64,000 bases of DNA from Thermoanaerobaculia bacterium. GTDB taxonomy: Bacteria; Acidobacteriota; Thermoanaerobaculia; Gp7-AA8. The stretch is from the NCBI GenBank assembly GCA_035544735.1, contig DATKCD010000013.1, forward strand, positions 3,412 to 67,411, in the 5' to 3' direction. The notes beneath the pieces are model-generated. The model did not search any database, was not told where the DNA came from, and was given only the letters and a program-made list of their open reading frames with translations. How positions within the stretch are numbered: position 1 is the first letter of the stretch; each line of letters starts with the position of its first letter. Below, in pieces: positions 43,650-63,694 of this stretch. The position numbers were made by a program, and so were the translations under genes.

Positions 43650-44342
43650 ATGCTCAACCGCTACCATCTCGATGCCGCACTGGAGCCCGGAACGTCGGTC
43701 GTTCTCGAAGGGGACGAGCACCATCACGCCGTGCGCGTGCACCGCGTCCGTGAGGGGGAGGGAGTCGAGCTGTTCGACGGGCGGGGGATTGCGGTCCTCG
43801 CCCGGATCGAATCGATCGGCCCGCGCTCGCTCGGCCTGTCGATCGAATCGCGGATCGTTGAACCGCGCGAGCCGCGGTTGGAGCTCGAGCTCGCCGTCGC
43901 TCTGATCCATCCGGACCGGCTCGAGCTCGTGCTGCAGAAGGCGACCGAGATCGGAGTCGCCTCGTTCCAGCCGATCACGACTTCACGAACCGAGGTCCGA
44001 CCCGAGCGCGTGCTCGGCAGGTCCGAGCGCTGGGCGAAGATCGTGCTCGAGGCGGTCAAACAGTCCGGGAGGTCGGTCATCCCGCGGCTGGAGCCGGTGA
44101 TTCCCCTCGAGCAGGCGCTCGCCCGTCCCGGCGTCAACGTGATCCTCGATCCGAGCGGCGAGTCCTCCCCTCCGCCGGCCGCTTCGGTCCGGCTGTTCGT
44201 CGGACCGGAGGGAGGATGGAGCGAAGAGGAGCTCGACGCCGCGCGCCGCATGGGCGCCCACTCCTGGTCGCTCGGGCACCGGCGCCTGCGCGCGGAAACC
44301 GCGGCGATCGCCGGCGCGGCCCTCCTCCTGCTGCACGAGTGA
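43650..44342 (+). CDS. rsmE: 16S rRNA (uracil1498-N3)-methyltransferase
   Basis: Start refined to MLNRYHL. PUA-like N-domain and SPOUT C-domain (GPEGGWSEEE). The 1148-aa listed ORF is an artefact. Confidence 0.8.
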   Translation: MLNRYHLDAALEPGTSVVLEGDEHHHAVRVHRVREGEGVELFDGRGIAVLARIESIGPRSLGLSIESRIVEPREPRLELELAVALIHPDRLELVLQKATEIGVASFQPITTSRTEVRPERVLGRSERWAKIVLEAVKQSGRSVIPRLEPVIPLEQALARPGVNVILDPSGESSPPPAASVRLFVGPEGGWSEEELDAARRMGAHSWSLGHRRLRAETAAIAGAALLLLHE

Positions 44343-44422
44343 AGCGCTCCCCCTCTCCGGACCGGCATCGCTCGAATCAGCAATCGCGCGCTGCGGAAAA
44401 GAAAGCAGCATGCGCTCTGCGA

Positions 44423-45292
44423 TCAGTTTTCCGACGCACGGCGCGCTCCCTCCGCTCCGAGCACCCCGCACCACCACTCTCCTTTCGATGCCTCTTCGAC
44501 GACGTTCAGTCCGGTGAGCCGTGCGGCGGCGACGACTTCGTCGCGGTACGGAAGCATGATCCCGCTCACGATCGCCCGTCCGCCGGAGGCGAGCATGGCG
44601 GCGAGGCGGGGAAGATTGGGGACGATCACGTCGGGCAGGATGTTCATCGTCACGAGATCGAAGCGGGCGGAGGGGGCGAGGGCGTCGATCGGCCCGATGA
44701 AGAATTCGATCCGGCCCGGGGGGACCTGGTTGCGCTCGAGGTTCTTCGGGACGATCTCCCACGTCACGGGATCGTCGTCGAAGGCGAAGACGCGCGCGGC
44801 GCCGAGACGGAACATCCCGATCGCGAGGATTCCACTCCCCGTTCCGACGTCGAGACCGCGGCGCTCGACCATCTCGATCGTCTCGAGCATCTCGAGGCAG
44901 AGCGCAGTCGACTCGTGCGAGCCCGTCCCGAACGCCCGCTCCTGAGGAATTACGATCGGATCGCGTCCCGGCTCGCGCGGCAGCAGCGAAGCGTCCGGAG
45001 CCACCACGAACCGCCGGCCGATGAAGAGCGGCTCGAGCGACTGCCGGTACAGCTCCAGCCAGTCCTTCCGTTCGCGGTCCTGCTCCTCGAGCTCCAGCCC
45101 CTCGACCTCTCCCAGCACGGCGCGCGCTTCGGCACGCTCCTCCGCCGAGTCGAACCAGCACGCCACGACCGTCCGCCCTCCCCGCTCCCCGATCTCGCAC
45201 CCGCGGCAGCTCGTCAGGAACAGCAGCCCCTCCACGCGATCATCGAGATCCGTCCGCGGCTCGTAGACGATCTCGAGAACAAAGTCGCGCAT
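44423..45292 (-). CDS. prmA: Ribosomal protein L11 methyltransferase
   Basis: Start refined to MRDFVLEI. SAM motif LDVGTGSGILAI and TMNIL. The upstream part of the listed ORF (KTLKTLKT...) is a translated repeat. Confidence 0.85.
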   Translation of the reverse strand: MRDFVLEIVYEPRTDLDDRVEGLLFLTSCRGCEIGERGGRTVVACWFDSAEERAEARAVLGEVEGLELEEQDRERKDWLELYRQSLEPLFIGRRFVVAPDASLLPREPGRDPIVIPQERAFGTGSHESTALCLEMLETIEMVERRGLDVGTGSGILAIGMFRLGAARVFAFDDDPVTWEIVPKNLERNQVPPGRIEFFIGPIDALAPSARFDLVTMNILPDVIVPNLPRLAAMLASGGRAIVSGIMLPYRDEVVAAARLTGLNVVEEASKGEWWCGVLGAEGARRASEN

Positions 45293-45738
45293 GGGCGTCT
45301 TGGGCGTCTTGGGCGTCTTGGGCGTCCTGGGCGTCTGGAGCGTCCTGGGCGTCTTGGGCGTCTTGAGCGTCTTGAGCGTCTTGAGCGTCTTGAGCGTCTT
45401 GAGCGTCTTGAGCGTCGAGTATCGATTCACGTCGAAGATCCGGACCGTCCCCTGCCGTCGGCCGCACCGGGTCGGCCCGAGAGCCCGAGGAGTGAGGAGC
45501 AGGATCGTTCTATCTTCTACGTTCTACGTTCTACGTTCTATGTTCTGCGTTCAAGAAGATCTACAGAGGCTCCAGACGCTCCAGACGCTCCAGACGCTCC
45601 AGACGCTCCAGACGCTCCAGACGCTCCAGACGCTCCAGACGCCCTAGACGCTCCAGACGCCCTAGACGCCCTAGACGCCCTAGACGCTCAAGACGCCCTA
45701 GACGCTCCAGACGCCCTGGACGCCCAAGACGCTCAAGA
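45293..45738. repeat. Inverted 9-bp tandem-repeat element D
   Basis: About 14 direct GCGTCTNGN units (45293-45416). Unique spacer. ACGTTCT-type heptamer x5-6 (45511-45556). About 19 reverse-complement units (45565-45738) that cover the dnaJ stop. Confidence 0.9.
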
Positions 45739-46857
45739 GTCGGTGCCGGTGAAGAACTTCTTCGCTTTCCGGAAGACATTCGGCTCGGGGATTTCTTCTC
45801 CCTCGAGCTTCGCGTACTCCTCGAGGAGCTCGCGCTGACGCCCTTCGACCGAGGTCGGAATCTGGACGGTCACGTGGACGTAGTGATCGCCGCGGCCGCT
45901 GCCGTCGATCCACGGAACGCCCTTCCCCCGGATGCGGAAGATCTGGCTCGGCTGGGTTCCCGGGGGGATCCTGAGCGTCTCCGGGCCGTGAACGGTCTGG
46001 ACGGAGAGCTCGGCGCCGAGGGCTGCGCGCGTGAACGTGAGCGGCTCCTCGGAGTGAATGTCGTAGTCGCGCCGGGTGAACCGCGGATGCTCCTCGACGG
46101 AGATGAAGACGTAGAGGTCTCCCTGAGGGCCTCCGTTGGTTCCGGCCTCGCCTTCCGCGGCGAGGCGTAGGCGGGTGCCGTCGTCGACGCCGGGAGGGAT
46201 CTTGACGGTGATGCCCTTCTGCTCGCGGACGCGGCCGGCGCCGCCGCAGTCGGCGCAGGCGTCGGTGATCACGCGCCCGCTGCCGCCGCACTGGGGACAG
46301 GTGCGGGCGACGGCGAGAAAGCCCTGCGAGTACCGAACCTGTCCGCGGCCGCCGCAGAGGGTGCAGGGGGTCGGAGAAGTCCCCGGCTTCGCACCCGAGC
46401 CGCCGCACGGGGCGCAGGTTGCGGCGCGAGGGACTTCGATCCGGACGTCCTTGCCGAAGACGGCGTCCTCGAAGGCGAGACCGAGATCGTATCGGAGGTC
46501 GGCGCCCCGCATGGCGCGGGTGCCGCGCCGGCGACCTCCGCCGAACAGATCGCCGAAGCCGAACAGGTCGCCGAGGATGTCGGCGAAATCGGTGAACTGA
46601 GAGGGGTCGAAGCCGACGCCGGCGCCGAGGCCGCCGTGGCCGAACCGGTCGTATTTCGACCGCTTGTCGGCGTCGGAAAGGACGGCGTACGCCTCGGCGG
46701 CCTCCTTGAACTTCTCCTCGGCTGTCGCGTCTCCGGGGTTCTTGTCCGGGTGAAACTGGACGGCGAGGCGGCGGTAGGCCTTCTTGATCTGATCGACCGA
46801 GGCGTCGCGGGAAACGCCGAGAACCTCGTAATAGTCTCTTTTCTCGATTGTGGCCAT
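45733..46857 (-). CDS. dnaJ: Chaperone DnaJ
   Basis: J-domain HPD (HPDKNP). G/F region. Four CxxCxGxG zinc-finger repeats. Confidence 0.95.
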
Positions 46858-46870
46858 CGGGGATTCTGGT

Positions 46871-48703
46871 TCACTCCACGACGGGGGGCTGGGTCTTGAG
46901 CGGGTTGTAGAGCATGACGGTGGTCAGGATGCGCGAGGCATTCTGGAGCTCGAAGATGGCGTCGTTGATCGCGTTTCTCTGTTCGCTCGTGACGGCCGCC
47001 TTGCCGGCGTTGATGGCCTTCTGGACCTTGTCGCGGTCTTCATCCGGGAGGAGTTTGCCGAACTCGCGGAAGACTTTCTCGTTGGTGTAGACCATCCCCT
47101 CGAGCTTGTTCTGGAGCTGGCGGATCTCGCGGCGCTCCTGGTCGGCGCGGGAGTGCTCCTGGGCTTCGTTGATGATGCGATCGATCTCGTCCTGAGTCAG
47201 ACCGCCGGCGGGATTGATCTGGACGCCCTGCTGCTGGCCGGTGGCCTGGTCGCGTGCGGTCACGTGCACGATGCCGTTCGAATCGATCGAGAAGGTGACC
47301 TCGATCTGGGGAACGCCGCGGGGTGCCGGAGGGATTCCGACCAGATCGAACTTGCCGAGGGATTTGTTCTCGCGGGAGAACTCGCGCTCGCCCTGCAGGA
47401 CGTGGATCTGCACCTTGTTCTGGTTCTCGGCGACGGTGGTGAAGATGAGGGAGTTCTTGGTCGGAATGGTGGCGTTGCGCTCGATGATCTTCGCGAACAG
47501 CCCGCCGTGGGTCTCGATGCCGAGCGAGAGGGGCGTGACGTCGAGCAGGACCATGTCCTTGATGTCGCCCCGGAGGATCGCCCCCTGCACGGCGGCTCCA
47601 ACCGCCACGACCTCGTCGGGATTGATGTTCCGGTTCGGATCCTTGCCGAAGACCCCTTTGACCGCTTCGATGACCTTCGGCATGCGCGTCTGCCCCCCGA
47701 CCAGGACGACCTCGTCGATCTGACTGGGGGAGAGGGCGGCGGCTTCGAGCGCGTTGCGGACCGGGTCGATCGTCTTCTGAATGAGGTCGTCGACCATCCG
47801 CTCGAACTCGGCGCGGCCCAGGACGCGGTTCAGATGCTTCGGACCCGACTGATCGGCGGAGATGAACGGCAGCGTGATGCGCGTTTCCTCGACCTGCGAG
47901 AGCTCACACTTCGCCTTTTCCGCCGCCTCCTTCAGCCGCTGCAGGGCCATCCGATCGTCGCGCAGATCGATCCCCGCTTCCCGTTGGAATCCCTCGATCA
48001 GCCAGTCGATGATCCGCTTGTCGAAGTCCTCCCCGCCGAGATAGGTGTCGCCGGAGGTCGAGAGCACCTCGAACAGACCGTCCTCGAGCTTCAGGATCGA
48101 GATGTCGAACGTTCCCCCGCCGAGGTCGTAGACGGCGATGATCTGATTCTTCTTGTTGTCGAGCCCGTAGGCGAGTGCGGCCGCGGTCGGCTCGTTGATG
48201 ATCCGGAGCACTTCGAGCCCCGCGATCCGCCCGGCATCGCGCGTGGCCTGCCTCTGGGAGTCGTTGAAGTAGGCGGGAACGGTGATGATCGTCTCCGTGA
48301 TCGCCTCGCCGAGGAACTCCTCGGCGAATGCCCGGATCTCCATCAGGACGAAGGCCGACACTTCCTCGGGCGAGAATTCGCGTTCGCGGATCTTGACCTT
48401 GATGTCGCCGTTGGACGCCGACACCACCTGGTAGGGAAGGACCTGCTTGGCGCGCGAGACTTCCTCGGTGTCGAATTTGCGGCCGATCAGGCGCTTGATC
48501 GCATAGACCGTATTGAACGGATTGGTGATCGCCTGGCGCTTCGCGATCTGTCCGACCAGACGCTCCCCGTCCTCGGTGAATCCGACCACCGAGGGGGTGG
48601 TCCGACTTCCCTCGCGGTTCGGTACGACCTGCGGAGTCGACACGTCGACTACGGCGACGCAGGAGTTCGTGGTGCCGAGATCGATTCCGATGATCTTCCC
48701 CAT
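46871..48703 (-). CDS. dnaK: Chaperone DnaK (Hsp70)
   Basis: Start refined to [39 protein letters not shown]. Confidence 0.97.
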
Positions 48704-48710
48704 GCAATCC

Positions 48711-49364
48711 TCAGGACGGCTCCCCGCCCTCTGTCTCACCACTCCTCGGAGCCGCCGAGACCTTCACGAGCGCCGGTCGCAGCAGCCGGTCGTGCAACAG
48801 ATACCCCTTCTGGAGTACGTCGATCACACGATTCGGCTCCACTTCGTCGGTCTCTTCGCGGGCGATTGCCTCATGGTACGACGGATCGAACGGTTGTCCA
48901 GCGGGATCGTTCGAGCTGAGCCCCGCCCGGGCCAGCACGTCCGCAAGCTGCCTCTGGATCATCTCGACTCCCGTCCGGAAGTCATCGGCCGCCCCTCCCT
49001 CCACCGCGAGTGCCCGCTCGAGATTGTCGAGCACGGGCAGCAGTTCCCGGAGCGTGTCGGCCAGCGCGTAACGGCGGAACTCGCTCCGCTCCCGCTCGGC
49101 CCGTTTTCTGTAATTCTCCAGGTCGGCCCGTGTGCGGAGCAACTGGTCGCGCAGCTTCTCGCTTTCCGCCCGAACGGACTCGGCTCCGCCGCCCGCACCG
49201 CGCCCGGAACCGGCGGGCGGCGAGCTCGAATCCTCCTCACCGACCGGAACCGGGGCCTCCCGATAGCCGGCGAGCTCCTGAACCTCGTCGAGATCGCCGC
49301 TGTCGTCGATGACGTAAATGTCCTCGTCGCCGGAAACGTCGTCCGGCTCTTTTCGATCGCTCAC
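48711..49364 (-). CDS. grpE: Nucleotide exchange factor GrpE
   Basis: 217 aa. GrpE coiled-coil and beta domain. GTG start overlapping the hrcA stop as GTGA. Confidence 0.88.
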   Translation of the reverse strand: MSDRKEPDDVSGDEDIYVIDDSGDLDEVQELAGYREAPVPVGEEDSSSPPAGSGRGAGGGAESVRAESEKLRDQLLRTRADLENYRKRAERERSEFRRYALADTLRELLPVLDNLERALAVEGGAADDFRTGVEMIQRQLADVLARAGLSSNDPAGQPFDPSYHEAIAREETDEVEPNRVIDVLQKGYLLHDRLLRPALVKVSAAPRSGETEGGEPS

Positions 49365-50443
49365 GGTACGCTCTCCCCGGATGATTCCTCGATCTTACGA
49401 CCGAGCGCCTTGCCGAGGTACTCGACCAGCGGAAGGACCCGGCTGTATTCCATCCTCGTGGGTCCAATGACGGCGACCAGGCCCGCCGGCTGAATCATGC
49501 CGTAGCTGGTGGCCACGAGCGCGAAGTTGTAGCTGCCGGTGAACGGGCTTTCCGATCCGACCACGACCTGGAGGCCTTCCTCACCGAGACAGTGATTCAG
49601 GATCTGAACCAGCTTCTCCTTCTCTTCGAACGCGCGGAGGACCTTGCGCATGGCCTCGCCGTCGGCGCTCGCGAACTCCGGCTTGCTCAGGATCGAGCTC
49701 GCCCCTTCGACCCAGATCTCGTGCTCGGACGGAAGGAGCTCTTCGACCGCGCCGGCGCCGACCGCGAGCGTACGCCGCCACATCCGATCGAATCGGGCGC
49801 GCTCCTCGCGCATCAGCGTCACGAGCCGCTCGCGGATCTGAGCCAGGGTCAGCCCGACGAACTCGGCCGACAGATGACGGCCGATCCCCTCGGCTTCCTC
49901 CCGCGTGAGGACGTCGTCGATCTCGATCACCCGGTTCACGACCACGCCGTTGGTGGCGACGATCACGACCATCAGCCGCCGCTCGGCCACCAGGATCAGA
50001 TCGATGCTCCTCATCGCGATGTGCCGGAGGGTCGGCATGAACACCAGACCGACCTGATCGCTCAGCTTCGAGAGCAGGCGCGAAGTCATGTGCATCACGT
50101 CGTCGAGCTCGCCGATCTTCGCCACCTCGCCGTCGATCACTTCCCGCTCGTGCGAGGTCAGCCGTCGCGATCGCATCAGGTGATTGATGAAGAACCGGTA
50201 CCCTCGGTCGGTCGGAACCCGGCCCGCCGAGGTGTGCGGCTGATGGAGATAGCCGAGGTCTTCCAGATCCGCCATCACGTTGCGCAACGAAGCCGGCGAC
50301 AACTGGAACGCTCCCGACTTCGCGAGCGTCCGCGAGCTGACCGGCTCGCCGCTCGACACGTAGATCCGGACGACCTCGCGCAGGACCTCGCGCAGCCGGC
50401 TCTCGAGCTCGTCCCCGTTCGATTCCTGGCGATAGTTCGGCAT
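49361..50443 (-). CDS. hrcA: Heat-inducible transcription repressor HrcA
   Basis: Start refined to MPNYRQES. N-terminal wHTH EPVSSRTLA. HrcA C-domain. Confidence 0.9.
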   Translation of the reverse strand: MPNYRQESNGDELESRLREVLREVVRIYVSSGEPVSSRTLAKSGAFQLSPASLRNVMADLEDLGYLHQPHTSAGRVPTDRGYRFFINHLMRSRRLTSHEREVIDGEVAKIGELDDVMHMTSRLLSKLSDQVGLVFMPTLRHIAMRSIDLILVAERRLMVVIVATNGVVVNRVIEIDDVLTREEAEGIGRHLSAEFVGLTLAQIRERLVTLMREERARFDRMWRRTLAVGAGAVEELLPSEHEIWVEGASSILSKPEFASADGEAMRKVLRAFEEKEKLVQILNHCLGEEGLQVVVGSESPFTGSYNFALVATSYGMIQPAGLVAVIGPTRMEYSRVLPLVEYLGKALGRKIEESSGESVP

Positions 50444-50448
50444 CGGCG

Positions 50449-50475
50449 TTAGCACTCCTCCGCACTGAGTGCCAA
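50449..50475. promoter_or_regulatory. CIRCE operator (HrcA binding site)
   Basis: TTAGCACTC-ctccgcact-GAGTGCCAA. 17 of 18 match to TTAGCACTC-N9-GAGTGCTAA. Lies 6 nt upstream of the hrcA ATG. Confidence 0.85.
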
Positions 50476-50502
50476 ACTACCCGGGCGGCGGGGTGCTGTC
50501 AA
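50474..50502 (-). promoter_or_regulatory. Sigma-70-type promoter of the hrcA operon
   Basis: Minus strand reads TTGACA-17 nt-TAGTTT. The -10 overlaps the distal CIRCE half-site. Confidence 0.5.
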
Positions 50503-50640
50503 GGTGAACGATCTTCGGGCTTTACCTCATTCCGCCCCGCGGCAGGCTCCGTGCAACCCCCCGGACGAGCGCCAGAGCCGCCCGCCCCCGTGATTCCTCT
50601 TCTCACGGCGGGCAAAATCGGCTTTACTGGGGCCGCCGCC

Positions 50641-51285
50641 ATGAACGACCGCCTCCGGCTCGTCCCGCTCCTCCTCGCCCTGCTCACTCCGCCGTCCCTC
50701 GAGGCCGAGATCATCGACCGGATCGCGGCGCTGATCGATCGGCAGGTGATCACCCTCAGCGAAGTCAACCAGGTGGTCGAGATCCGCCTGCGCGCCCCCC
50801 GGCAGGGGGAGGACGAGGGGGAATATCGCCGGCGCGTGCTCGACGCCATGGTCGCGCACACCCTGCGCTACCGCGACGTCGAGCGCTTCGGGGCGGCGGA
50901 CGTCCCGGCGGACTCGATCGAGTCGCGGCTACGCGAGATCATCGCCCGGTTCCCCTCGGAGGAGGCGTTCACCGATACCCTGCTCCGCGTCGAGCTCACG
51001 CTCGACGAAGTGCGCGCTCTGATCAAGCGGCAGCTCCAGGTCCAGGCCTACGTCGACGAGCGGTTCGCGCCGATGATCTTCGTGTCGATCGAGGAGATCG
51101 AGTCGTATTACCGCGAGACCTGGGCGCCGCAGCGCCAGGAGCGCGGCCTTCGCGTCCCCCCGCTGGCAGAAGTCTCGGAGGAGATCCGGCGCCTGGTGCG
51201 CGCCGACCGTCTCCAGGACGAGATCGACCGCTGGACCGAGCAGCTCCGCGCCCGCGCCAACGTCGACATCTTCGTCTACCGGTGA
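50641..51285 (+). CDS. SurA-N-domain-like periplasmic chaperone (no PPIase domain)
   Basis: Start refined to MNDRLRLVPLLLALL (signal peptide). Helical SurA N-terminal-type composition. Confidence 0.45.
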   Translation: MNDRLRLVPLLLALLTPPSLEAEIIDRIAALIDRQVITLSEVNQVVEIRLRAPRQGEDEGEYRRRVLDAMVAHTLRYRDVERFGAADVPADSIESRLREIIARFPSEEAFTDTLLRVELTLDEVRALIKRQLQVQAYVDERFAPMIFVSIEEIESYYRETWAPQRQERGLRVPPLAEVSEEIRRLVRADRLQDEIDRWTEQLRARANVDIFVYR

Positions 51286-51372
51286 TCCGCCCGCCCCGGT
51301 GTGGTCGGGCGTCCCGACCGCCCCCGGGTGGGTGGCTGCGCCGAACCCGGTGTGATCATCGGGAGAGCGCCC

Positions 51373-51510
51373 TCCGGGCAAATGCAAAATGCACAATGCA
51401 AAATAATGCAAAATGGACAATCCAAAAAGGAGCCGACGACCCTCGACCGTCGCCGACCGATTCTGGCTGCTTCTCTTTGGATTGTGCATCGTGCAGTTTG
51501 CATTCGGCCG
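51373..51510. repeat. Heptamer-array hairpin element F
   Basis: Left arm CCTCCGGGCAAATGCAAAATGCACAATGCAAAATAATGCAAAATGGACAATCCAAAAAG. Right arm is its imperfect reverse complement (CTTTGGATTGTGCATCGTGCAGTTTGCATTCGGCCGGAGG). 37-bp loop. Confidence 0.75.
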
Positions 51511-51551
51511 GAGGCCCGCACGACTACGCCGCCGGCTCTCTGCGGGAGGTC

Positions 51552-52028
51552 CTACCTGCGCTCCTCGAGCAGAGCCATCGTGTTTCCCTCCGTGTCGCGG
51601 AACAGCGCGAGCCAGAGCTGGTGATCGGACATCTCCGCCACCATGCGCGGCGCCTCCACGAACGTCACTCCGGCCGCCGCGAGGCGCTCGTGCACCGCCT
51701 CGATCGATTCGGTGCGGAAATAGAGGATCGACGAATGATGCTCCTGCTCCGGCTTTTCCGCCACGCCCAGCAGCAGCCGGATGCCTCCGACCTCGAAGAA
51801 AGCCATCTGCGGAGGAGCGTCGAAAAGAAACGGAATGCCGAGAACGTCGCGATAGAAAGTCCTCGCACGATCGAGATCGCGCACGGTGATCGCGATCTGC
51901 CGGACTCCCAGGATGTCGGTGCTCGCCGCCATGGCAACCTCCCTGGCCGATCGATCGGGGAGCGCCGGACCGTCGGCCGAAGCCACGGCGCCCGTGAACA
52001 ACATGGACGCGACCAGAATCACTTTCAT
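51552..52028 (-). CDS. Secreted VOC-family (glyoxalase-fold) protein
   Basis: Start refined to MKVILVASMLF (signal peptide). VOC beta-alpha-beta modules. Confidence 0.6.
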   Translation of the reverse strand: MKVILVASMLFTGAVASADGPALPDRSAREVAMAASTDILGVRQIAITVRDLDRARTFYRDVLGIPFLFDAPPQMAFFEVGGIRLLLGVAEKPEQEHHSSILYFRTESIEAVHERLAAAGVTFVEAPRMVAEMSDHQLWLALFRDTEGNTMALLEERR

Positions 52029-52086
52029 GAATCGTCCTCCTCCGGCCCCGCCGGGCTGGTGACGATTCTCCGATCCCATTCACCGC

Positions 52087-52965
52087 TCAGTCTGACCGAT
52101 CTTGCGAATTCCGGCGGTGACGTGCGGGCGGGATCCCGAAGCGTGAGCGGAACCGCCGGGCGAGGCCCTCGGGCGAGAGGAATCCGCAGAGAGGGGCGAG
52201 CGTGGCGATTGGCAGCGAGGTCTTTTCGAGCAGGTCGCGGGCACGATCGAGACGGACGCGGGTGAGGTACTCGAGGGGAGTGACTCCTTCGATCGCCCGG
52301 AACGTCCGATGGAAGTGGTACTCGGAGAGCGAGGCGGCGGCGGCCATGGCGCCGAGGTCGATGGGATCGGCATGGCGGGCGTGGATGAAATCGACCGCAC
52401 GGGCGATGCGGCGGTGGAGCTCGATGCGGGTCGAGGCGCGGAGCGCGGGCACCGAGGCGATTCGCAGGCGGACGCTCCGTTCGGCTGCGAGCGCGGCAAC
52501 GCCGGCCTCGAGAAAGCATTCTTCGATCCGGCGGGGGTCGCGTGAGCGGTCGAGCTCTCGCCGCAGGGCGGCGATGGCGGCCGTGAGGGCGGGGGTGCGG
52601 CGGACGTGCGGATCGAACCCGCGATCCGCGCCGGCCGGCGCCTTTTCGAGAAGGGCCTCCGATCCTCTGGTCATGCCGGCCTCGAGGCTGGCGAGCCAGC
52701 CCCGCCGGAAAAAGAGGCAGAGCGTCTCGACCCTCTCGGTGGAATGGATTCGGAGGGCATAGCGGTCGCCCTCGTTGAGCGGCAGCCAGGCGCCCGTCTC
52801 GAGGCGGTGCGTCGCGCCGGCGGCCTCCCACTCGCCCGCTCCCCGCACGACGGTCTTGATCGATGCCGGACCTTCGAAGGCGACCTCGTGGCGGAAAGCG
52901 AAGCCGCGGAGGATCGCGTTCTCCCGCCCGAGCATCGACGCCGGAGGGTTCAGCAGGATCGGCAT
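52087..52965 (-). CDS. AraC-family transcriptional regulator
   Basis: 292 aa. C-terminal double HTH (LSEYHFHRTFRAIEGVTPLEYLTRVRLDRARDLL). N-terminal cupin-like sensing domain. Confidence 0.85.
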   Translation of the reverse strand: MPILLNPPASMLGRENAILRGFAFRHEVAFEGPASIKTVVRGAGEWEAAGATHRLETGAWLPLNEGDRYALRIHSTERVETLCLFFRRGWLASLEAGMTRGSEALLEKAPAGADRGFDPHVRRTPALTAAIAALRRELDRSRDPRRIEECFLEAGVAALAAERSVRLRIASVPALRASTRIELHRRIARAVDFIHARHADPIDLGAMAAAASLSEYHFHRTFRAIEGVTPLEYLTRVRLDRARDLLEKTSLPIATLAPLCGFLSPEGLARRFRSRFGIPPARHRRNSQDRSD

Positions 52966-53017
52966 GGCCGGAGTCTCGAACGCCGGAGCGGGATCGACTC
53001 GTCCGCCTCGACGCGCC

Positions 53018-53758
53018 TCAGCTCATCAGCTCTTCGGGGATGTCGAAGTTCGACCAGACGTTCTGCACGTCCTCGTGATCGTCGAGTGCCTCGAGCAGTT
53101 TGAGCGCCTGCTTCGCCTGCGGCTCCGCGACGCTGACCGAGGTCATCGGAATCATGCCGAGCTTCGCTTCGACCGTCGGGATGCCGACCTTCTCGAGCGC
53201 CTGCCGGACGTGCTCGAACGCCTCCGGCCCGGTGTAGACCTCGTAGGAATCGGCGTCGCCGCTCTGCAGATCGTCGGCCCCCGCCTCGAGGACGATCTCC
53301 ATCAGACGATCCTCGCCGACCGCGCGCTTCTCGATCGAGAAGTAGCCGCGGCGCTCGAACTGGAACCTGACCGACCCGGGCGTCCCGAGATTCCCTCCGT
53401 TCTTTTCGAACATGTGGCGGATCTCGGGAGTCGTGCGGTTGGAGTTGTCGGTCATCGCGTCGACGATGAACGCGACCCCGCCCGGCCCGTAGCCCTCGTA
53501 GATGACTTCCTCGTAGCTGGCGCCCTCGAGCTCGCCCGTTCCGCGCTTGATCGCGCGCTCGATGTTGTCCTTCGGCATGTTGCTCGCCTTCGCCTCCGCG
53601 ACGGCCGCACGAAGGCGCGGGTTCGCATCGGCGTCGCCGCCGCCGAGACGGGCGGCCACCGTCATCTCCTTGATGATCCGCGTGAAGACTTTGCCGCGCT
53701 TCGCGTCCGCGGCACCCTTCTTGTGCTTGATCGTGCTCCATTTGCTGTGGCCGGACAT
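53018..53758 (-). CDS. yebC: YebC/PmpR-family transcriptional regulator
   Basis: Start refined to MSGHSKWSTIKHKKG (hallmark N-terminus). 246 aa. Confidence 0.93.
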   Translation of the reverse strand: MSGHSKWSTIKHKKGAADAKRGKVFTRIIKEMTVAARLGGGDADANPRLRAAVAEAKASNMPKDNIERAIKRGTGELEGASYEEVIYEGYGPGGVAFIVDAMTDNSNRTTPEIRHMFEKNGGNLGTPGSVRFQFERRGYFSIEKRAVGEDRLMEIVLEAGADDLQSGDADSYEVYTGPEAFEHVRQALEKVGIPTVEAKLGMIPMTSVSVAEPQAKQALKLLEALDDHEDVQNVWSNFDIPEELMS

Positions 53759-53886
53759 GACGGACGTGCTCCCTGGCGAGGTAATTCGGATGTTGAGAAA
53801 CCGGGCTCGAAGAATACCATTCCCGTCGACGCCGGGCACCGCCGGCCTCCGGGGCGGTCTTTCCCCTTCCCCCCCGCCGGGCCCGG

Positions 53887-55218
53887 TCACATTCCCCTGC
53901 GGCCGCGGACGACCAGGCGCACGGGGGTGCCGACCAGCCCGAGGGCTTCGCGGAACTGGTTCTCGAGGAACCTCTTGTAGGAGAAGTGGAGCGGCTGTTC
54001 GACGTTCGAGAAGAGGGCGATGGTCGGCGGGCCGGAACGGAGCTGAGTCGCGTAGTAGAACTTCCGCCCCTTTCCGTCGACGGAGGGGGGGGAGTGCTTC
54101 GCGACGGCCGCCGCGAGGATCTGGTTGAGCTCGGAGGTCCGGAACCTCGCCCGATGGGACTCGGCGATCCGATCGATCTGGTCGAACAGCTTGTCGACGC
54201 GGCGGCCCGTTTTCGCGGAGATGAACTCGACCGGGGCGTACTGGAGGAACTTGAGCTTCGAGCGAATCGTCTCTTCGACGCGCTTCGCGGTGTCCTGCTC
54301 CGCCTCGACCAGGTCCCACTTGTTGACCAGGATGAGCGCTCCCTTGCCTTCCTCCTCGGCGTAGCCCGCGACCGTCGCGTCCTGCGCGGTGACGCCCTCG
54401 ACGGCGTCGATCATGACCAGCGCCACCTCGGAGCGGCGGACCGCCTTCAGCGCGGAGATCACGGCGAGCTTCTCCGCCCCGTCGGTCGTCTTCCCCTTGC
54501 GGCGGATCCCGGCCGTGTCGATGACGAGATAGCGCCGGCCCCCTCGCTCGATCCACTCGTCGACGGCGTCGCGCGTCGTGCCGGCGATCGAGGAGACCAC
54601 CACCCGCTCGCTCCCCGCCAGCCGGTTCAGCAGCGACGATTTACCGACGTTCGGCCGACCGATGATCGACAGCCTGACCGGGCTCGTCTCGTCCCCCGCT
54701 TCGGCCTCGTCGGGATCGTGCGGCAGCCGCTTCGCCAGCTCCTGCTCGAGCTCGTCGAGATTGATCCCGTGCTCCGCCGAGACGGCGATGAGACGCTCGA
54801 ATCCGAGCGCGTAGAACTCTCCCGCCGAATCCCGCGCGCTCCCAGTGTCGATCTTGTTGACCACTACGACGACCTTCTCCGCGTGCGGGCGCAGCTCGGT
54901 CGCGATCTCTTCGTCCTCCGGCATCGAGCCGGCGGTCCCGTCGACCACGAACACGATGACGCTCGCCGTCTCGATCGCGCGCAACGCCTGCTCCCGGATC
55001 TCACCGGCGAACGCCGACAGCGGGTTCTGCCCGTATTCCAGCCCCCCCGTATCGATCAGCTCGAAGCTCCGGCCGTCGGCGAGCGAGGAGAGGGCCGAGA
55101 TCCGGTCGCGCGTCATTCCGGGCATGTCGTGGATGAGCGCCCTCCGCCGCCCCGCGAGGCGGTTGAAGAGCGTCGACTTTCCGACGTTCGGTCTCCCGAC
55201 GATGACGACTCGATTCAT
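53887..55218 (-). CDS. der: Ribosome-biogenesis GTPase Der (EngA), tandem GTPase domains + KH-like domain
   Basis: Start refined to MNRVVIVGRPNVGKS. Second GD IGRPNVGKSS. DTAG and NKxD in both domains. Confidence 0.95.
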   Translation of the reverse strand: MNRVVIVGRPNVGKSTLFNRLAGRRRALIHDMPGMTRDRISALSSLADGRSFELIDTGGLEYGQNPLSAFAGEIREQALRAIETASVIVFVVDGTAGSMPEDEEIATELRPHAEKVVVVVNKIDTGSARDSAGEFYALGFERLIAVSAEHGINLDELEQELAKRLPHDPDEAEAGDETSPVRLSIIGRPNVGKSSLLNRLAGSERVVVSSIAGTTRDAVDEWIERGGRRYLVIDTAGIRRKGKTTDGAEKLAVISALKAVRRSEVALVMIDAVEGVTAQDATVAGYAEEEGKGALILVNKWDLVEAEQDTAKRVEETIRSKLKFLQYAPVEFISAKTGRRVDKLFDQIDRIAESHRARFRTSELNQILAAAVAKHSPPSVDGKGRKFYYATQLRSGPPTIALFSNVEQPLHFSYKRFLENQFREALGLVGTPVRLVVRGRRGM

Positions 55219-55320
55219 GACGTTCACGCCGGAGACATCATCGCATTCCGGAACGCCCCTCGACACGATGCCGTCTGCGCGCACCTCCTTCCCTGTCGCA
55301 CGCTTCGCCTCCGGACGCGA

Positions 55321-56661
55321 TCAGAGCGCGACCGCTCCCCAGTACAGCGCGATCGCGATCAGCGCGCCGGCGAGGGTGTTGAAGAAATTGAGCGCGCCGT
55401 TGGGAACGGGGACGCTCCTGTTCCGATTCCAGCTCCCCGCCACGCTCTCGAGCCACGAGGCGAGGATCGCGGCCGTGGTGACGATGAGCGTGCCCGCACC
55501 GAAGCTGACCGCGATCCGATCGTGTGCGAGGGCGACGCCGAGCGCGCCAACCGCCCCTCCCGCCAGCGCCCCCGCCAGCGTCCCCTCCAGCGAGATCGCC
55601 CCCTCGGTGCCTCGCGGAACCTGGCGGAGGCTCAGCGGAAGGAACGTCCTTCGCCCGAACAGCTGGCCGATCTCGGAGGCGGTGGTGTCGGCCGTCGCGG
55701 TGGCGAGCGCGGCAATCGCCCCGAGCCAGAGCGCTCGCAGCGACCCCGCTTCAGCTGCGATCAGGAGCGAGACGATCGCCGCCACCCCGACGTTCGACCA
55801 GGCATGCGAGAACCCCCTCCGCCCGCCCCGCTCCTGGGCGAGCCCGGCCGCCTCCTTCTTCTGCCATCCGAGTCGCGTCACCGCCGTGCCGACGACGAAG
55901 AACGCGACCAGCACCACGTAGAGCTCCCAGCCGGCGAATGCGATCAGGATCGCACCGAGCGCGAACCCTCCTGCCGCGCCGGAGAGGGTCACGCTCCGTC
56001 CGAGCCACCCTCCCAGAGCGAGCGCACCGTTCGCTCCGAGCCAGAGCAACTCCGTCCCGCCGAGACGCGGCTCCGGCTCGCGCGAGATCCGCGTCAGCGC
56101 CGCCAGCAGAAGGGCTCCGACCAGCGGCACCACGAAGTTGTCGTCGAGACGCAGATCGAGACTCTCCGCGATCGCGCAGGCGATCGCCGTCACGACCGCC
56201 AGGGAGATCCAGCCGGCCGCGTACGGAGGATCGGGCTGCACGAACGAGGCGACCTGCCACGCCGCGACGCTCCCGGCCAGAACGAACGTCAGCGAGCCGG
56301 CGACGCTCTTCGAGCGGTTCCACGGCAGTCGCGGTCCCCCGATCAGCCGCCCCGCCAGGGTCGCTCCCCCGTCGCCGAACGCCATGATCGCCCACACCGC
56401 CGCGGCGACCCCGGGATCGCCGGGGAACAGGACGATCAGGAAGAACACCGCAGCGGGATAGAGGACGATTCCGAGGTCCGTGCCGCGCGGGCTGCGCGCG
56501 ATGCGCGTGCCGAACAGGTGCGGGAGCACGAGCCAGTTGTAGAGAAACGCCGCGGCGGCCAGGGCTGCCGCCTGCCAGGGACTCAACCATCGGAGCAGCA
56601 GAGCGCAGAACCCGAACGCCACGTGCACCAGCTTCCGGAGGACCTCCCGATCGAGCGCCAT
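55321..56661 (-). CDS. Fusion of polyprenol/phytol-kinase-like (CTP-dependent kinase) domain with DUF92 (TMEM19-like) membrane domain
   Basis: Start refined to MALDREVLRKLVHV. N-terminal part has FGDGGATLAG...NRSKSVAGS (dolichol/phytol-kinase-like). C-terminal half is polytopic DUF92-like. Confidence 0.6.
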   Translation of the reverse strand: MALDREVLRKLVHVAFGFCALLLRWLSPWQAAALAAAAFLYNWLVLPHLFGTRIARSPRGTDLGIVLYPAAVFFLIVLFPGDPGVAAAVWAIMAFGDGGATLAGRLIGGPRLPWNRSKSVAGSLTFVLAGSVAAWQVASFVQPDPPYAAGWISLAVVTAIACAIAESLDLRLDDNFVVPLVGALLLAALTRISREPEPRLGGTELLWLGANGALALGGWLGRSVTLSGAAGGFALGAILIAFAGWELYVVLVAFFVVGTAVTRLGWQKKEAAGLAQERGGRRGFSHAWSNVGVAAIVSLLIAAEAGSLRALWLGAIAALATATADTTASEIGQLFGRRTFLPLSLRQVPRGTEGAISLEGTLAGALAGGAVGALGVALAHDRIAVSFGAGTLIVTTAAILASWLESVAGSWNRNRSVPVPNGALNFFNTLAGALIAIALYWGAVAL

Positions 56662-56776
56662 CCGCGCGAGTCTAGGGGTCGGGCAGACCCGGAGTCCAGA
56701 AGAGTCGGGGTTCGGGAGTCGGCAGTCTCGCGGTTCCCCGCCCGGCTCCAGACTCCAGACTCTACAATGGGCGGCG

Positions 56777-58210
56777 ATGGCCGAATCCGAGAGCCCCGCC
56801 GAGCCCCGGCCGCTGCTGTCGGTCATCGTTCCCTGCTACAACGAGCGGTCGACGGTGGCGGAGCTTCTGAGACGCGTGAGGAAGGTCCCGGTCGACAAGG
56901 AGATCATCGTCGTCGACGACCAGTCGCGCGACGGCTCGCGCGACATCGTGGCCGCCCTGGCGGCGGAGTGGCCCGAGCTGCGCCAGGAGATCCAGCCGCG
57001 AAACATGGGAAAGGGGGCCGCGCTCCGGCGCGGGATCGAGCTCGCGCGCGGCGAGATCGTCATCATTCAGGATGCGGATCTCGAGTACGACCCGGAGGAG
57101 TACCCGAAGCTGATCCAGCCGATCGTCGACGGGCACGCGGACGTCGTCTATGGTTCGCGATTCGAAGGCTACCCGCGACGCGTCATGCTCTACTGGCACA
57201 GGCTCGGCAACGTTTTTCTCACATTCCTCTCGAACGCGACGACCAACCTCGACCTGACCGACATGGAGACGTGCTACAAGGTCTTCCGCCGCGAGGTGAT
57301 CCAGTCGATCCGGCTCAACTCGAACCGCTTCGGTTTCGAGCCCGAGGTCACGGCGAAGGTCGCGAAGCGCGGGTACCGGATCTACGAGGTCCCGATCGCC
57401 TACTACGGCCGCGACTACTGGGAAGGAAAGAAGATCAACTGGAAGGACGGCTTCTCGGCGATCTGGACGATCCTGCGGTACGGCCTGTTCGAAGATCCCG
57501 CGAGCGAGCCGGCCGGCTATCTCACGCTGCGCCGCAAGTCGACCCTCCGGAATTATCACGAATGGATCTGGGACCGGATCCGGCCGCACGTGGGGCAGCG
57601 CGTGCTGGAGGTCGGAGCGGGGAGCGGGAGTCTGACGCGCCTGCTCTACGGGCGCGATCTGGTGGTCGCGACCGAGAAGGAGACGCCGTATCTGGACCGT
57701 CTGACCAACGCATTCCGGCGGCGGCCGGGGATCGAAGTCGAGGCGCTCGACCTCGATGCGCCGGGAGACCTCTCGCGCTTCATCGAGCGTCGCTTCGACA
57801 CGATCCTGCTGGTCAACGTCCTCGAGCACCTCGGCGACGACGCCGGCGCGCTCCGGCGCGCCCATTCGATCCTCGAGCCGGGGGGAACGGTGATCGTTTA
57901 CGTGCCGGGAGACAGCCGGCTGTTCGGACCTCTCGATCGCGGCGTGGGGCACCACCGGCGCTACGACCCCGAGCAGCTCCGGCAGCTTTTGTCGGAGGCG
58001 GGCTTCTCGACGATCGAGCTCGGATGGCAGAACCGGGCGGGCCGCATCGGATGGAGGGTCAACTCCGGGCTGCTGCGGCGGCGCGAGCTGCCGTCGACCC
58101 AGTCGAAGATGTTCGATCGTCTGGTGCCGCTGCTGCGGCGGCTGGAGGGGGAGCGGCCGCGCAGGGGGCTCAGCCTCGTCGCGGTGGGTCGCAAGGGAGA
58201 ATCGCGATGA
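56777..58210 (+). CDS. Family-2 glycosyltransferase (polyprenyl-phosphate mannosyl/glucosyl-transferase, Dpm1-like) fused to a class-I SAM methyltransferase domain
   Basis: LLSVIVPCYNE...VVDDQSRDGS...IQDADLEYDP (GT-A DXD). Then LEVGAGSGSLT...LLVNVLEHL (MTase motifs I and post-I). Confidence 0.85.
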   Translation: MAESESPAEPRPLLSVIVPCYNERSTVAELLRRVRKVPVDKEIIVVDDQSRDGSRDIVAALAAEWPELRQEIQPRNMGKGAALRRGIELARGEIVIIQDADLEYDPEEYPKLIQPIVDGHADVVYGSRFEGYPRRVMLYWHRLGNVFLTFLSNATTNLDLTDMETCYKVFRREVIQSIRLNSNRFGFEPEVTAKVAKRGYRIYEVPIAYYGRDYWEGKKINWKDGFSAIWTILRYGLFEDPASEPAGYLTLRRKSTLRNYHEWIWDRIRPHVGQRVLEVGAGSGSLTRLLYGRDLVVATEKETPYLDRLTNAFRRRPGIEVEALDLDAPGDLSRFIERRFDTILLVNVLEHLGDDAGALRRAHSILEPGGTVIVYVPGDSRLFGPLDRGVGHHRRYDPEQLRQLLSEAGFSTIELGWQNRAGRIGWRVNSGLLRRRELPSTQSKMFDRLVPLLRRLEGERPRRGLSLVAVGRKGESR

Positions 58211-59226
58211 GCGAGCGCGCGGCGATCCTGCTCGCGGGGGGGGCCGGCACGCGCCTCTGGCCTCTGAGCACCGACGAGCGGCCCAAGCAGTTCCTCCGGA
58301 TCTTCGAAGGACGCTCGCTCCTGCAGATCGCCTTCTCCCGCATGCGGAACCTCCTTCCGGCCGACCGGATCTTCGTCGCGGCCCACGAGCGCCATCGCGA
58401 AGCGATCTTCGCCGAGCTGCCCGAGCTCCCCCCCGACAACGTCCTGCTCGAGCCCGAGCGGCGGAACACCGCGCCCGCGATCGCCGTCTCCTGCTCGCAG
58501 GTCGCGCGCACCCTCGCCGGCGATCCGGTCATCGGGATCTTCCCCTCCGATCACTTCGTCGCGGACGAGGACGCATTCGTCCGCACCGTCGACCGCGCCT
58601 TCCGCTTCGCCGCGACCGAGCCGTTTCTCGTCACGATCGGAATCGATCCCGATCATCCCAACACCGGCTTCGGATATCTCGAGCTCGGAGAGACGATGGG
58701 GGACGAAGTCATCCGGCTGCTCCGCTTCGTCGAGAAGCCGACGCGGGAGCGCGCCGAGGAGTTCGTCCGGAGCGGGCGGTTCGTCTGGAACGGAGGGATG
58801 TTCGTCTGGCGCCGGAGCACCTTCGAGAACGCGCTGGAGGCGACCGCTCCGGAGATCGCGGCGATCGCCCGGAAGCTCGCCGGCGCTTCGGCAGCCGAGC
58901 GGAAGACCCTCTACGCGCAGATGCCTTCGATCTCGATCGACTTCGCCGTGATGGAGAAGGCGCCGAACGTCGCGACCGTCCGGGGATCGTTCGGCTGGTC
59001 CGACGTCGGGTCGTGGAAGGCCGTCGCGAAGATCGTCGGGCAGGGACTGGAGGAGGGAGTGATCCGCGAAGAGTCGCCCGGCTCGCTGGTGCACGCCCGA
59101 GGCGACCGCCCCGTCATCCTCATCGGCGTGCCCAACATCGCCGTCGTCGACGTCCCCGAAGGACTCCTCGTCATCGACCTCGACCGATCCGAGCACCTCG
59201 CCTCGGTCCTCAAGAAGCATGAGTAA
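58207..59226 (+). CDS. manC: Mannose-1-phosphate guanylyltransferase (GDP-mannose pyrophosphorylase)
   Basis: ATG at 58207 overlaps the upstream stop (ATGA). LLAGGAGTRLWPLS nucleotidyl-transferase motif. The listed 1746-aa ORF is an artefact. Confidence 0.85.
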   Translation: MSERAAILLAGGAGTRLWPLSTDERPKQFLRIFEGRSLLQIAFSRMRNLLPADRIFVAAHERHREAIFAELPELPPDNVLLEPERRNTAPAIAVSCSQVARTLAGDPVIGIFPSDHFVADEDAFVRTVDRAFRFAATEPFLVTIGIDPDHPNTGFGYLELGETMGDEVIRLLRFVEKPTRERAEEFVRSGRFVWNGGMFVWRRSTFENALEATAPEIAAIARKLAGASAAERKTLYAQMPSISIDFAVMEKAPNVATVRGSFGWSDVGSWKAVAKIVGQGLEEGVIREESPGSLVHARGDRPVILIGVPNIAVVDVPEGLLVIDLDRSEHLASVLKKHE

Positions 59227-59347
59227 GGCATTGATGATTGATGATTGATGATTGATGATTGACGGCTCGATCATCGAGCATCAATCATAGATCATCAATC
59301 AAAAATGCCTTTCAATCATCAATCATAGATCATAGATCATCAATGCC
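59227..59347. repeat. TGATTGA-heptamer inverted-repeat element G
   Basis: GGCATTGA(TGATTGA)x4...central palindrome GCTCGATCATCGAGC...TCAATCA/TAGATCA units...TCATCAATGCC. Terminal inverted repeats GGCATTGATGA/TCATCAATGCC. The right repeat contains the ATG (59343-59345) of the next gene. Confidence 0.85.
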
Positions 59348-60188
59348 TTCTGGCGTGTTCGACATTCACCTTCACGTGCAGCCCTGGGAGATGCTGCGGG
59401 ACGAAGTGCGGCCGCTCATCGACGACGAGTCGCACCGCGGCGCCGCGGAGATTCTCGCCTCGGCTCCGCGCCTCCTCGACTGGATGGATAAGGAAGGGAT
59501 CGCGCGCGCCTGCTGCATCAACTACGTCTCCCCCGACGTGATGGGATTCCCCGCCGCGGTGAACGACTGGATCGCGACCTTCACGCGCGCCCATCGCGAC
59601 CGCCTCCTCCCCGTCGGCTCGGTCCATCCGAAGACCACTCCCGACCTCCGCTCCGAGATCCTCCGCCTGCTCGACCTCGGCATGCGGATGATCAAGATCC
59701 ATCCGCCGCATCAGCTCTTCGCCGCGAATGCCTACCGCTCCGGCCTGCCGGGCCTCGCCGCCGTCTACGCCGAATGCGAGACGCGCGGAGTCCCGGTGAT
59801 GTTCCATACCGGAACGTCGATCTTTCCGGGAGCGCGGAACGTCTACGCCGACCCGATGCCGATCGACGACGTCGCCGTCGATTTTCCGCGCCTCACGATC
59901 ATCCTGGCGCATGCCGGCAGACCTCTCTACGGCGACACCGCCTTCTTCCTCGTGCGGAGGCATCGCAACGTGTTCCTCGATCTGTCCGGCATCCCTCCGA
60001 AAGCGATCCCGCGATACGTCCCGCGCCTGGCCCACATTTCGGAGCGGGTCCTCTGGGGAACCGACTGGCCCTCGCCCGGCGTGGTCTCGCCCCGCGCGAA
60101 CGTCGAGCAGTTCCGCGCCCTCGGTCTCGGAGAAGAAGTCGAGCGCAAGATCCTCGGCGAAAACGCCGCCCTGTTGTTCCCGACGTAG
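59343..60188 (+). CDS. Amidohydrolase-2-family TIM-barrel metal-dependent hydrolase
   Basis: Start refined to MPSGVFDIHLHVQ (H-x-H metal motif at the N-terminus). HTG and later His/Asp (GTDWP). Confidence 0.7.
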   Translation: MPSGVFDIHLHVQPWEMLRDEVRPLIDDESHRGAAEILASAPRLLDWMDKEGIARACCINYVSPDVMGFPAAVNDWIATFTRAHRDRLLPVGSVHPKTTPDLRSEILRLLDLGMRMIKIHPPHQLFAANAYRSGLPGLAAVYAECETRGVPVMFHTGTSIFPGARNVYADPMPIDDVAVDFPRLTIILAHAGRPLYGDTAFFLVRRHRNVFLDLSGIPPKAIPRYVPRLAHISERVLWGTDWPSPGVVSPRANVEQFRALGLGEEVERKILGENAALLFPT

Positions 60189-60267
60189 CTTCCGAGCTCG
60201 CCCGTCGTCTCCGGCCGCTCCGCCGGCGGTCGATTGGCAGGGGGCTTGCGTCCTCAGCCGTTCGCAG

Positions 60268-61407: not shown

Positions 61408-61495
61408 TCTGCCGCCGCTGACTCGCCCCGCCGAGCTGGAGACGATCGATCTCCCGCCGCGGAAGGGAGCTCTAGCCGCCGAGGCCGACGTCCTG

Positions 61496-62821: not shown

Positions 62822-62871
62822 GAACGAGGCACGGATTCTGCTCGTCTCCCGGATGAGAGGAGCAGAGCATC

Positions 62872-63642: not shown

Positions 63643-63694
63643 CCGACGGCCCGGGCGTCCTGCGGTGTCATCACCGATCCTGACGCCGGCGGGC

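Follow-up and report, generated by a model that had tools for sequence, protein, structure and literature searches.

The spacer between two convergent genes, one SurA-like and one of the VOC family, in a 64,000-nt stretch of genomic DNA (the window) holds a run of AT-rich heptamers facing a complementary run, and the locus raises the question of what kind of element this is (element F) and what it might do between two stop codons. We find that F is a far-beyond-chance hairpin of decayed AATGCAN tandem repeats around a terminator-like core. It is built as an inverted pair of decayed heptanucleotide SSR arrays, (AATGCAN)n ... (NTGCATT)n, flanking a GC-rich stem, and as such it belongs, as a local instance, to a kind of bacterial repeat that is widespread but poorly explained; the element type is not new. 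As to its role, we give roughly even chances to F being a slippage-born heptamer SSR hairpin that acts as a bidirectional terminator or a 3′-end stem.

The Convergent Junction

F lies 86 nt past the stop codon of the SurA-N-like gene and 38 nt short of that of the VOC gene, and both gene calls and homologues bear out the convergent SurA-like and VOC flanks named in a preliminary description of the sequence. The features of the junction are:

50641–51285, plus strand: SurA N-terminal-domain-like gene, 214 aa, upstream convergent partner of F (from homologues)
51287–51335, no strand assigned: GC-rich hairpin straight after the SurA-N-like stop codon, separate from F (inverted repeat; RNA fold −42.4 kcal/mol, z −4.5)
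51371–51514, no strand assigned: element F, whole, closed by the clamp CCTCCGG (51371–51377) / CCGGAGG (51508–51514)
51377–51429, plus strand: left (A-rich) arm of F, GGCA + AATGCAA AATGCAC AATGCAA AAT AATGCAA AATGGAC AATCCAA AAAG (from sequence, TRF and motif matches)
51381–51427, plus strand: 24-nt direct duplication within the left arm, copies 51381–51403 / 51405–51427, 91% identity
51421–51472, minus strand: GC-rich core of F, a 10-bp stem (51458–51431) followed by CCTTTTTGGA (51430–51421) (from terminator scan and folds)
51473–51507, plus strand: right (T-rich) arm of F, ~4 degenerate units (from sequence and minus-strand motif matches)
51552–52028, minus strand: VOC/glyoxalase-family gene, the other convergent partner of F (PF00903, E 6e-15; Logan-contig gene call)

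The SurA-N-like protein is 100% identical to a 214-aa entry (P0001) from a 'Thermoanaerobaculia bacterium' MAG; its homologues carry PF09312/PF13624 or the SurA name, and a Pfam search with the window protein gave no match at E ≤ 0.001. The VOC gene encodes 158 aa on the Logan contig, an extension of the ORF being possible to 52079, and exact look-up of the 175-aa ORF returned no entry because the recorded start differs. Upstream of the SurA-N-like gene lie hrcA and grpE, and a near-perfect CIRCE operator for HrcA (TTAGCACTC-N9-GAGTGCCAA, 50449–50475) overlaps the hrcA start. F itself was considered as a CIRCE element (TTAGCACTC-N9-GAGTGCTAA inverted repeat) and rejected, since that operator, outside F, is the sole match. 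A protein-coding reading was also rejected, since the GC3/GC2 filter retained none of the ORFs that cross F. An identical 1.7-kb Logan contig (SRR8556377), found via an AraC neighbor, stops inside the left arm of F, as expected of an assembly-breaking repeat.

Architecture and Folding of Element F

F is a 144-nt quasi-palindrome in which a 7-bp GC clamp, the left arm, the core and the right arm are met from the outside in. It was first delimited as 51373–51510 and extends instead over 51371–51514. The imperfect complementarity then attributed to the arms is present, in two inverted repeats (51371–51404 with 51481–51514, 34 nt, 85% complementary; 51407–51433 with 51469–51495, 27 nt, 81% complementary), and the arms are unequal, ~59 nt on the left and ~42 nt on the right, because the 24-nt direct duplication sits in the left arm only, where the folds render it as a 17-nt bulge or a local hairpin. 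The supposed 37-nt loop is actually ~43 nt long (51430–51472) and forms a folded, GC-rich core of its own.

The folding energy is −66.4 kcal/mol for plus-strand RNA (z −6.7), −74.5 kcal/mol for minus-strand RNA (z −8.7) and −43.7 kcal/mol for DNA (z −7.8), and none of the 200 dinucleotide-preserving shuffles on which these z scores rest folded as well as F. The initial proposal that F is a hairpin made of an AATGCAN module that it has in common with a second element, E, is supported.

TRF reports period 7 with 3.6 copies in the left arm (51380–51404), together with period 24, and degenerate units run on to 51429; the right arm, read as its reverse complement, is AATGCAA ACTGCAC GATGCAC AATCCAA AGAG, with minus-strand AATGCAN matches at 51478–51504. 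The unit is a 7-mer with the core AATGCA and a variable seventh base, and GCAAAATG, previously taken for the repeat unit, is an 8-mer that runs across a unit boundary. GCAAAATG occurs five times in the window against 0.37 expected, and, with up to two mismatches allowed, AATGCANAATGCA has 19 matches where 0.56 are expected, every one of them at one of three sites (3377–3424, the termini of E, and F). F accordingly has the makeup of a heptanucleotide SSR, a 7-nt tandem unit in at least three copies with a conserved core and a variable position, and also that of an inverted pair, since a complementary array lies close by in convergent orientation and can form a stem-loop with it.

A Terminator-Like Core

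The GC stem of F is flanked by an A-run and, on its opposite side, by a T-run. Read on the minus strand, in the sense of the VOC gene, the core is a 10-bp stem with six G-C pairs and a loop of 8, followed by CCUUUUUGG, ~95 nt past the VOC stop codon; the tail of the stem on this strand is CCTTTTTGGA, so that a GC stem-loop with an immediate U-run stands downstream of a stop codon, as in an intrinsic terminator. It is the strongest canonical terminator-like match in the 20 kb from 44001 to 64000, a region in which such matches are at chance level (9 found versus 7.7 expected). In the plus-strand sense, the U-rich CUUCUCUUUGGAUU comes directly after the core; it falls under the scan threshold of 5 T in 8, and no clean U-run follows the full hairpin. 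If the heptamer arms are read as an extended A-run and U-run around the GC stem, F has the layout of a bidirectional intrinsic terminator.

Repeat-Built Hairpins Elsewhere in the Window

Three further sets of features bear on F:

19891–20449, no strand assigned: element E, a nested quasi-palindrome of ~560 bp at a convergent junction, outer arms GC clamp-GGCA-(AATGCAN)n-AATGTAAAAG
3374–3427, plus strand: perfect (CAGAATG)x7.7 array of the AATGCAN-type unit, between inverted 9-mer arrays 3257–3354 / 3475–3507
6430–6660, 19842–20482, 26716–27133 and 51286–51551: four long convergent junctions (from spacer folding)

Element E fills the whole of its 640-nt convergent spacer as a nested palindrome (fold z −13.3) with heptamer outer arms and inner inverted repeats at 20042–20069/20221–20248 and 20079–20092/20186–20199. 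The arms of E and F have in common an outer GC clamp with GGCA and an inner AATNNAAA(A)AG end, the latter in all four arms, and the motif that opens F, already noticed at the E termini, is GGCAAATGCA, found exactly three times (E-left, E-right and F-left). Among 140 arrays sampled without bias from other genomes, not one had GGCA in front of it. The common ends are thus specific to this genome, and they suggest that the E and F arms are related by descent or have been homogenized within it, so that the description of these junctions as independent is doubtful. GGCA was tried as a general array boundary and rejected on the same sample, yet at least 120 GGCA-prefixed AATGCAN arrays were found in metagenome contigs. 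F had also been counted as the third junction at which the module forms a hairpin. That holds for E and F, whereas the array at 3374–3427 is the center of a 9-mer hairpin and not an arm.

Folding every spacer of the window on a rough gene map placed repeat-built hairpins at all four long convergent junctions (z −7.5 to −13.3), with z near 0 at divergent junctions and most tandem junctions. The other junction hairpins are built from 9-mers (GGGCGTCTT / AAGACGCCC) or from other 7-mers.

Large hairpins with a 9-nt unit occupy 3257–3507, 6433–6669, 26716–27144 and 45295–45738. Their left arm repeats GCGTCT plus three variable bases and their right arm the complement, AGACGC plus variable bases; they reach 30 copies per arm, abut stop codons and keep a constant arm order. 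Two of them enclose a central 7-mer array, CAGAATG or CGTTCTA, with TAGAACG units in 6537–6603. At 45290–45300 the 9-mer array reaches the candidate ATG (45292–45290, minus strand) of gene 44423–45292 (minus strand), leaving no obvious ribosome-binding site, and the true start of this gene may be further downstream. A further hairpin at 59230–59344, made of (ATTGATG)x4.7, (TCGATCA)x5 and (TCAATCA)x4.7, begins 4 nt past the stop codon of a 1746-aa ORF (53986–59226), ahead of the next plus-strand gene.

Heptamer Arrays in Other Genomes

Three consecutive AATGCAN units occur at at least 120 loci in species-representative genomes, the hosts among the matches listed including Acidobacteriota, Planctomycetota, Chloroflexota, Verrucomicrobiota, Bacteroidota, Bacillota, Cyanobacteriota and archaea, and at least 120 arrays occur in viral contigs. 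Permuted control heptamers in viral contigs gave 106 loci for AAGTCAN and 45 for ATAGCAN, where we estimate one or two by chance. AATGCAN was therefore rejected as a uniquely special heptamer, the controls also being far over chance. Period 7 dominates the tandem arrays of the fetched loci, in agreement with the published excess of heptanucleotide SSRs.

AATGCAN arrays often form inverted pairs, and these have a fixed polarity, with the purine-rich arm 5′. The partner array lay 3′ rather than 5′ of the AATGCAN arm in 43 versus 4 cases in genomes, 20 versus 1 in metagenomes and 31 versus 3 in viral contigs (94 versus 8 in total, a hairpin with two clean arms being counted once per arm), and in 10 versus 1 for the control unit AAGTCAN. 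Among clean hairpins, 19 of 22 had equal unit numbers in both arms, and the variable seventh bases were complementary in 70%, against 46% expected. Where unpaired AATGCAN arrays lie at most 40 nt past a stop codon, 44 are on the coding strand versus 16 in the opposite orientation, with gene contexts at these other loci assigned by a crude ORF/GC3 heuristic. The loops of AATGCAN hairpins differ completely between genomes. A universal rule of the A-rich arm first was considered and rejected, since it fails for the 9-mer hairpins of the window, in which a GCGTCTT-type arm comes first; the ATTGATG/TCAATCA hairpin also has no A-rich 5′ arm.

Several contigs carry such arrays in distinctive layouts. 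In L323 (IMG/VR 3300024433_000075), four AATGCAG/CTGCATT hairpins (5414–5480, 6790–6845, 7445–7503 and 9939–10005) have near-identical loops and occur in both orientations inside a 12-kb span. The genes between which they lie are co-directional and probably co-transcribed, and the four hairpins constitute a dispersed multicopy form of the AATGCAN-type hairpin. In L290 (IMG/VR 3300029305_011774), one pattern recurs at least five times in 14 kb (at 1217, 1953, 4706, 10703 and 11192): the stop codon TAA of a gene overlaps the start of (AATGCAN)4-6, which is followed by a conserved ~100-nt element (…GTGACGCAGGTGCGTT…GTAGGGCGGGG…CCCGCCGGGT…CGCACCGGTACCATTGTGGAAC). This layout looks cassette-like, and the element has no Rfam match. 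In four metagenome contigs (L154:9550–9650, L158, L210 and L230), AATGCAN arrays lie in the loop between CACGGATG ... ATCCGTGA inverted arrays, the same nesting as at 3257–3507 of the window.

The Orthologous Junction in Relatives

The SurA-N-like proteins of the closest available relatives show ~70–73% identity, and these relatives keep the gene order dnaK-grpE-hrcA / SurA-N / VOC. Their SurA-N/VOC spacers are 84–197 nt long and almost entirely hairpin, with fold z scores from −3.2 to −10. The heptamers of F are absent from the orthologous junction at all eight relative loci, and the spacers contain either REP-like GGCCGCGGCTTTCCAGCCGCGGC units, paired in inverted orientation, or a small palindrome, GCGAAGCTGAAAGCTTCGC, present twice. 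The preliminary description had proposed conservation of the heptamer arms in related genomes as a check on F. At this protein identity the arms are absent, yet a different long hairpin is present. We conclude that hairpin structure at gene 3′ ends, this junction included, persists while the sequence families turn over fast, with both arms changing together.

The inverted GGCCGCGGCTTTCCAGCCGCGGC pairs form long, REPIN-like hairpins at L124:4646–4784, L125:4646–4783, L128:4646–4785 and L129:4646–4842, and the L125 junction has GGCCGGAGCTT.. variants in which both arms are changed. The window has no copy of the relatives' REP-like GGCCGCGGCTTTCCAGCCGCGGC unit.

A second junction in the relatives, yebC-der, has a (CAGAAGN)n...(NCTTCTG)n hairpin (L122:6000–6270, L128:6070–6222, L129:6121–6255). 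Its unit is GCAGAAG in some relatives and CCAGAAG in another, the opposite arm changing to match, and copy number also alters in both arms together. The hairpin is absent from L125 and from the window (53760–53886).

Proposed Function and Origin

We hypothesize that F acts at the RNA level. RNA copied from either strand would run from a purine/A-rich arm through the GC core to a pyrimidine/U-rich arm. On the minus strand, with its canonical stem and U-run, F would end or stabilize the VOC transcript; on the plus strand it would back up termination of the SurA-N-like transcript, and between the two it would block convergent read-through. The weakest RNA:DNA hybrids are rPy:dPu, and with a 3′ arm rich in pyrimidine/U on both strands the hybrid would be weak and favor transcript release. 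The arrays would have arisen, and would change in length, by replication slippage, 7-nt units being favored, and the arms would be kept alike by arm-to-arm copying (quasi-palindrome template switching) or by selection for pairing.

Several observations favor this reading. First, F folds strongly on both strands and as DNA, and no terminator-like match in 20 kb is better than its core. Second, repeat-built hairpins stand at four of four long convergent junctions, and the relatives keep long hairpins of unrelated sequence at the orthologous one. Third, the fixed polarity gives a pyrimidine/U-rich 3′ arm on both strands, as termination needs, and unpaired arrays prefer the coding strand after stop codons. 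Fourth, the arm symmetry (equal unit numbers, complementary seventh bases and changes in both arms among the relatives) fits arms that are kept alike. Finally, the dominance of period 7, which matches the published heptanucleotide excess, favors an origin by slippage. From these patterns we infer both termination itself and an origin by slippage and template switching.

Other observations weaken the terminator reading. The plus strand has no clean U-run after the full hairpin, and the absence of the heptamer arms from the orthologous junction means that the sequence of F is not conserved. Neither the 9-mer hairpins nor the ATTGATG/TCAATCA hairpin has an A-rich arm on the 5′ side, so something other than termination may underlie the polarity rule. 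For the L323 hairpins, which stand between co-directional genes, an RNA-stabilizing or attenuating stem fits better than a full stop.

It is possible, if unlikely, that F is a neutral by-product, in which case slippage-prone heptamers and palindromes would pile up in promoter-free convergent DNA, where they do least harm, with no role in termination or RNA stability. Such a view accommodates the fast turnover, in which related genomes differ in having or lacking a heptamer hairpin at one and the same junction, and the decayed, asymmetric state of F, with its 24-nt duplication in a single arm. It is also consistent with the abundance of arbitrary permuted heptamers (106 and 45 viral loci) and with the published explanation of the heptamer excess by polymerase slippage (PMC4679880; PMC4692102). 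Unconstrained slippage would not, however, be expected to produce a polarity of 94 versus 8 or equal arms in 19 of 22 hairpins, and both the canonical terminator-like core exactly at the center of F and the retention of a long hairpin of other sequence by the relatives argue against it.

That F and E are non-autonomous mobile elements of MITE- or REPIN-like type, with terminal inverted repeats GGCA-(AATGCAN)n-AAAAG and moved by a transposase encoded elsewhere, seems to us improbable. The GGCAAATGCA starts, the AATNNAAA(A)AG ends of the four arms and the lack of GGCA before the 140 arrays sampled elsewhere are what such termini would predict, and both the near-identical loops of the four L323 hairpins, in both orientations within 12 kb, and the REPIN-like inverted REP pairs at the orthologous junction point the same way. 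Although inverted ends are present, neither E nor F is flanked by a target-site duplication (the flanks of F read …gagagcgc/CCTCCGG … CCGGAGG/cccgcacg); the interiors of E and F have nothing in common, and loops differ completely between genomes. A BLAST search with the non-repeat parts of both, run against the window and ~500 fetched loci, turned up no further copy, and within that scope F and E were set aside as multicopy elements.

A role at the DNA level, through cruciform extrusion or as a protein-binding array that relieves or marks supercoiling between convergent units, is quite improbable. REP/BIME elements bind gyrase or IHF, F has a strong fold as single-stranded DNA (z −7.8), the giant palindromes of the window are exclusive to convergent junctions, and the periodic short core (TGCA) would suit a repeated binding site. 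Against this stand the 7-bp period, which mismatches the helical repeat, and the polarity and coding-strand preference, which point to a constraint at the RNA level or linked to transcription; no candidate binding protein was identified, the CIRCE site of HrcA being elsewhere (50449–50475).

It is scarcely credible that F is a small regulatory RNA or a cis-regulatory RNA motif, since, although the hairpin is stable and some arrays in other genomes lie near downstream start codons, Rfam gave no match in the window at the gathering threshold and only weak generic hairpin (miRNA-model) noise at a permissive threshold over 51150–51700 (E ≥ 0.66), a scan of 50500–52500 found no sigma-70-like promoter, and the sequence is not conserved in relatives.

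Implications

Alone, F carries little weight, being a single decayed repeat hairpin, and the surrounding pattern is more useful. Canonical terminators are scarce here and giant repeat hairpins stand at every long convergent junction, which makes such hairpins a testable candidate for how convergent transcription ends in high-GC soil bacteria. Polarity, equal unit numbers and concerted arm changes are simple, measurable rules by which selection might be told apart from mutational bias in the old puzzle of why prokaryotes favor 7-nt repeats. Elements of this type also break short-read assemblies, as with the Logan contig that ends in an arm of F, and recognizing them aids the finishing and annotation of MAGs.

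A broader generalization, speculative and, taken whole, rather unlikely, would unite heptamer-array hairpins with a purine 5′ arm and a pyrimidine 3′ arm (AATGCAN, CAGAAGN, AAGTCAN, GGGAATC and others) in one cross-phylum class of strand-symmetric 3′-end elements. These would act as U-tract-independent bidirectional terminators or insulators, their arms would be equalized by hairpin-templated copying, they would have undergone multicopy spread in some genomes, and F would be a decayed member.

Comparison With Known Systems

A literature search on the exact repeat strings found no relevant paper. REP, BIME and REPIN elements are extragenic palindromes found at the 3′ ends of genes, for which mRNA stabilization or transcription termination has been proposed, and REPs and REPINs have a short (20–40 nt) conserved palindromic unit, a high copy number and a link to RAYT transposases. 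F resembles them as a 3′-end palindrome, at a junction whose orthologue in relatives holds an inverted pair of REP-like GGCCGCGGCTTTCCAGCCGCGGC units, and differs in being built from tandem repeats and, within the window, in having no short conserved palindromic unit in many copies.

Bidirectional Rho-independent terminators are similar to F in lying between convergent stop codons and in having a GC stem with an A-run and a T-run and a 3′ side that is U-rich on both strands, on the plus strand below the scan threshold for a U-run. F is far longer (144 nt), its A/U tracts are extended as mutually pairing, imperfect heptamer arrays, and its activity is predicted.

Among the 5–11-nt repeats of prokaryotes, heptanucleotide long SSRs are over-represented, with slippage proposed as the cause (Mrazek 2007, as cited in PMC4679880 and PMC4692102), and the STRR heptamers of cyanobacteria are a further case (as cited in PMC4692102). 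The TAACTGA repeats of Beggiatoaceae lie just upstream of start codons, with one inverted case only (PMC4679880). Like the repeats in these reports, F has tandem, intergenic 7-nt units whose distribution is patchy across phyla; unlike them, since they are mostly direct arrays, the arrays of F form a hairpin at gene 3′ ends.

The closest precedent for F is the GGGAATC inverted heptamer repeats of Xanthomonas (PMC4692102), where 70–75 'convergent' inverted pairs occur per genome (Rehm et al. 2015, PLoS One, PMC4692102); the repeats typically have ~4 units and are intergenic, near stop codons and rare between divergent genes (PMC4692102). F differs in phylum (Acidobacteriota, class Thermoanaerobaculia) and in enclosing a canonical terminator-like core. 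Its AATGCAN unit is AT-rich and has no G-tracts, so a G-quadruplex reading is inapplicable, G-tracts being a trait of the Xanthomonas and Nostoc units and not of heptamer SSRs generally. In position F is of the same type, intergenic, near stop codons and not between divergent genes. The family resemblance extends to a 7-nt unit with a conserved core and variable positions, inverted stem-loop pairs with the purine-rich arm 5′, a high-GC host genome, and a length and sequence that vary among related species.
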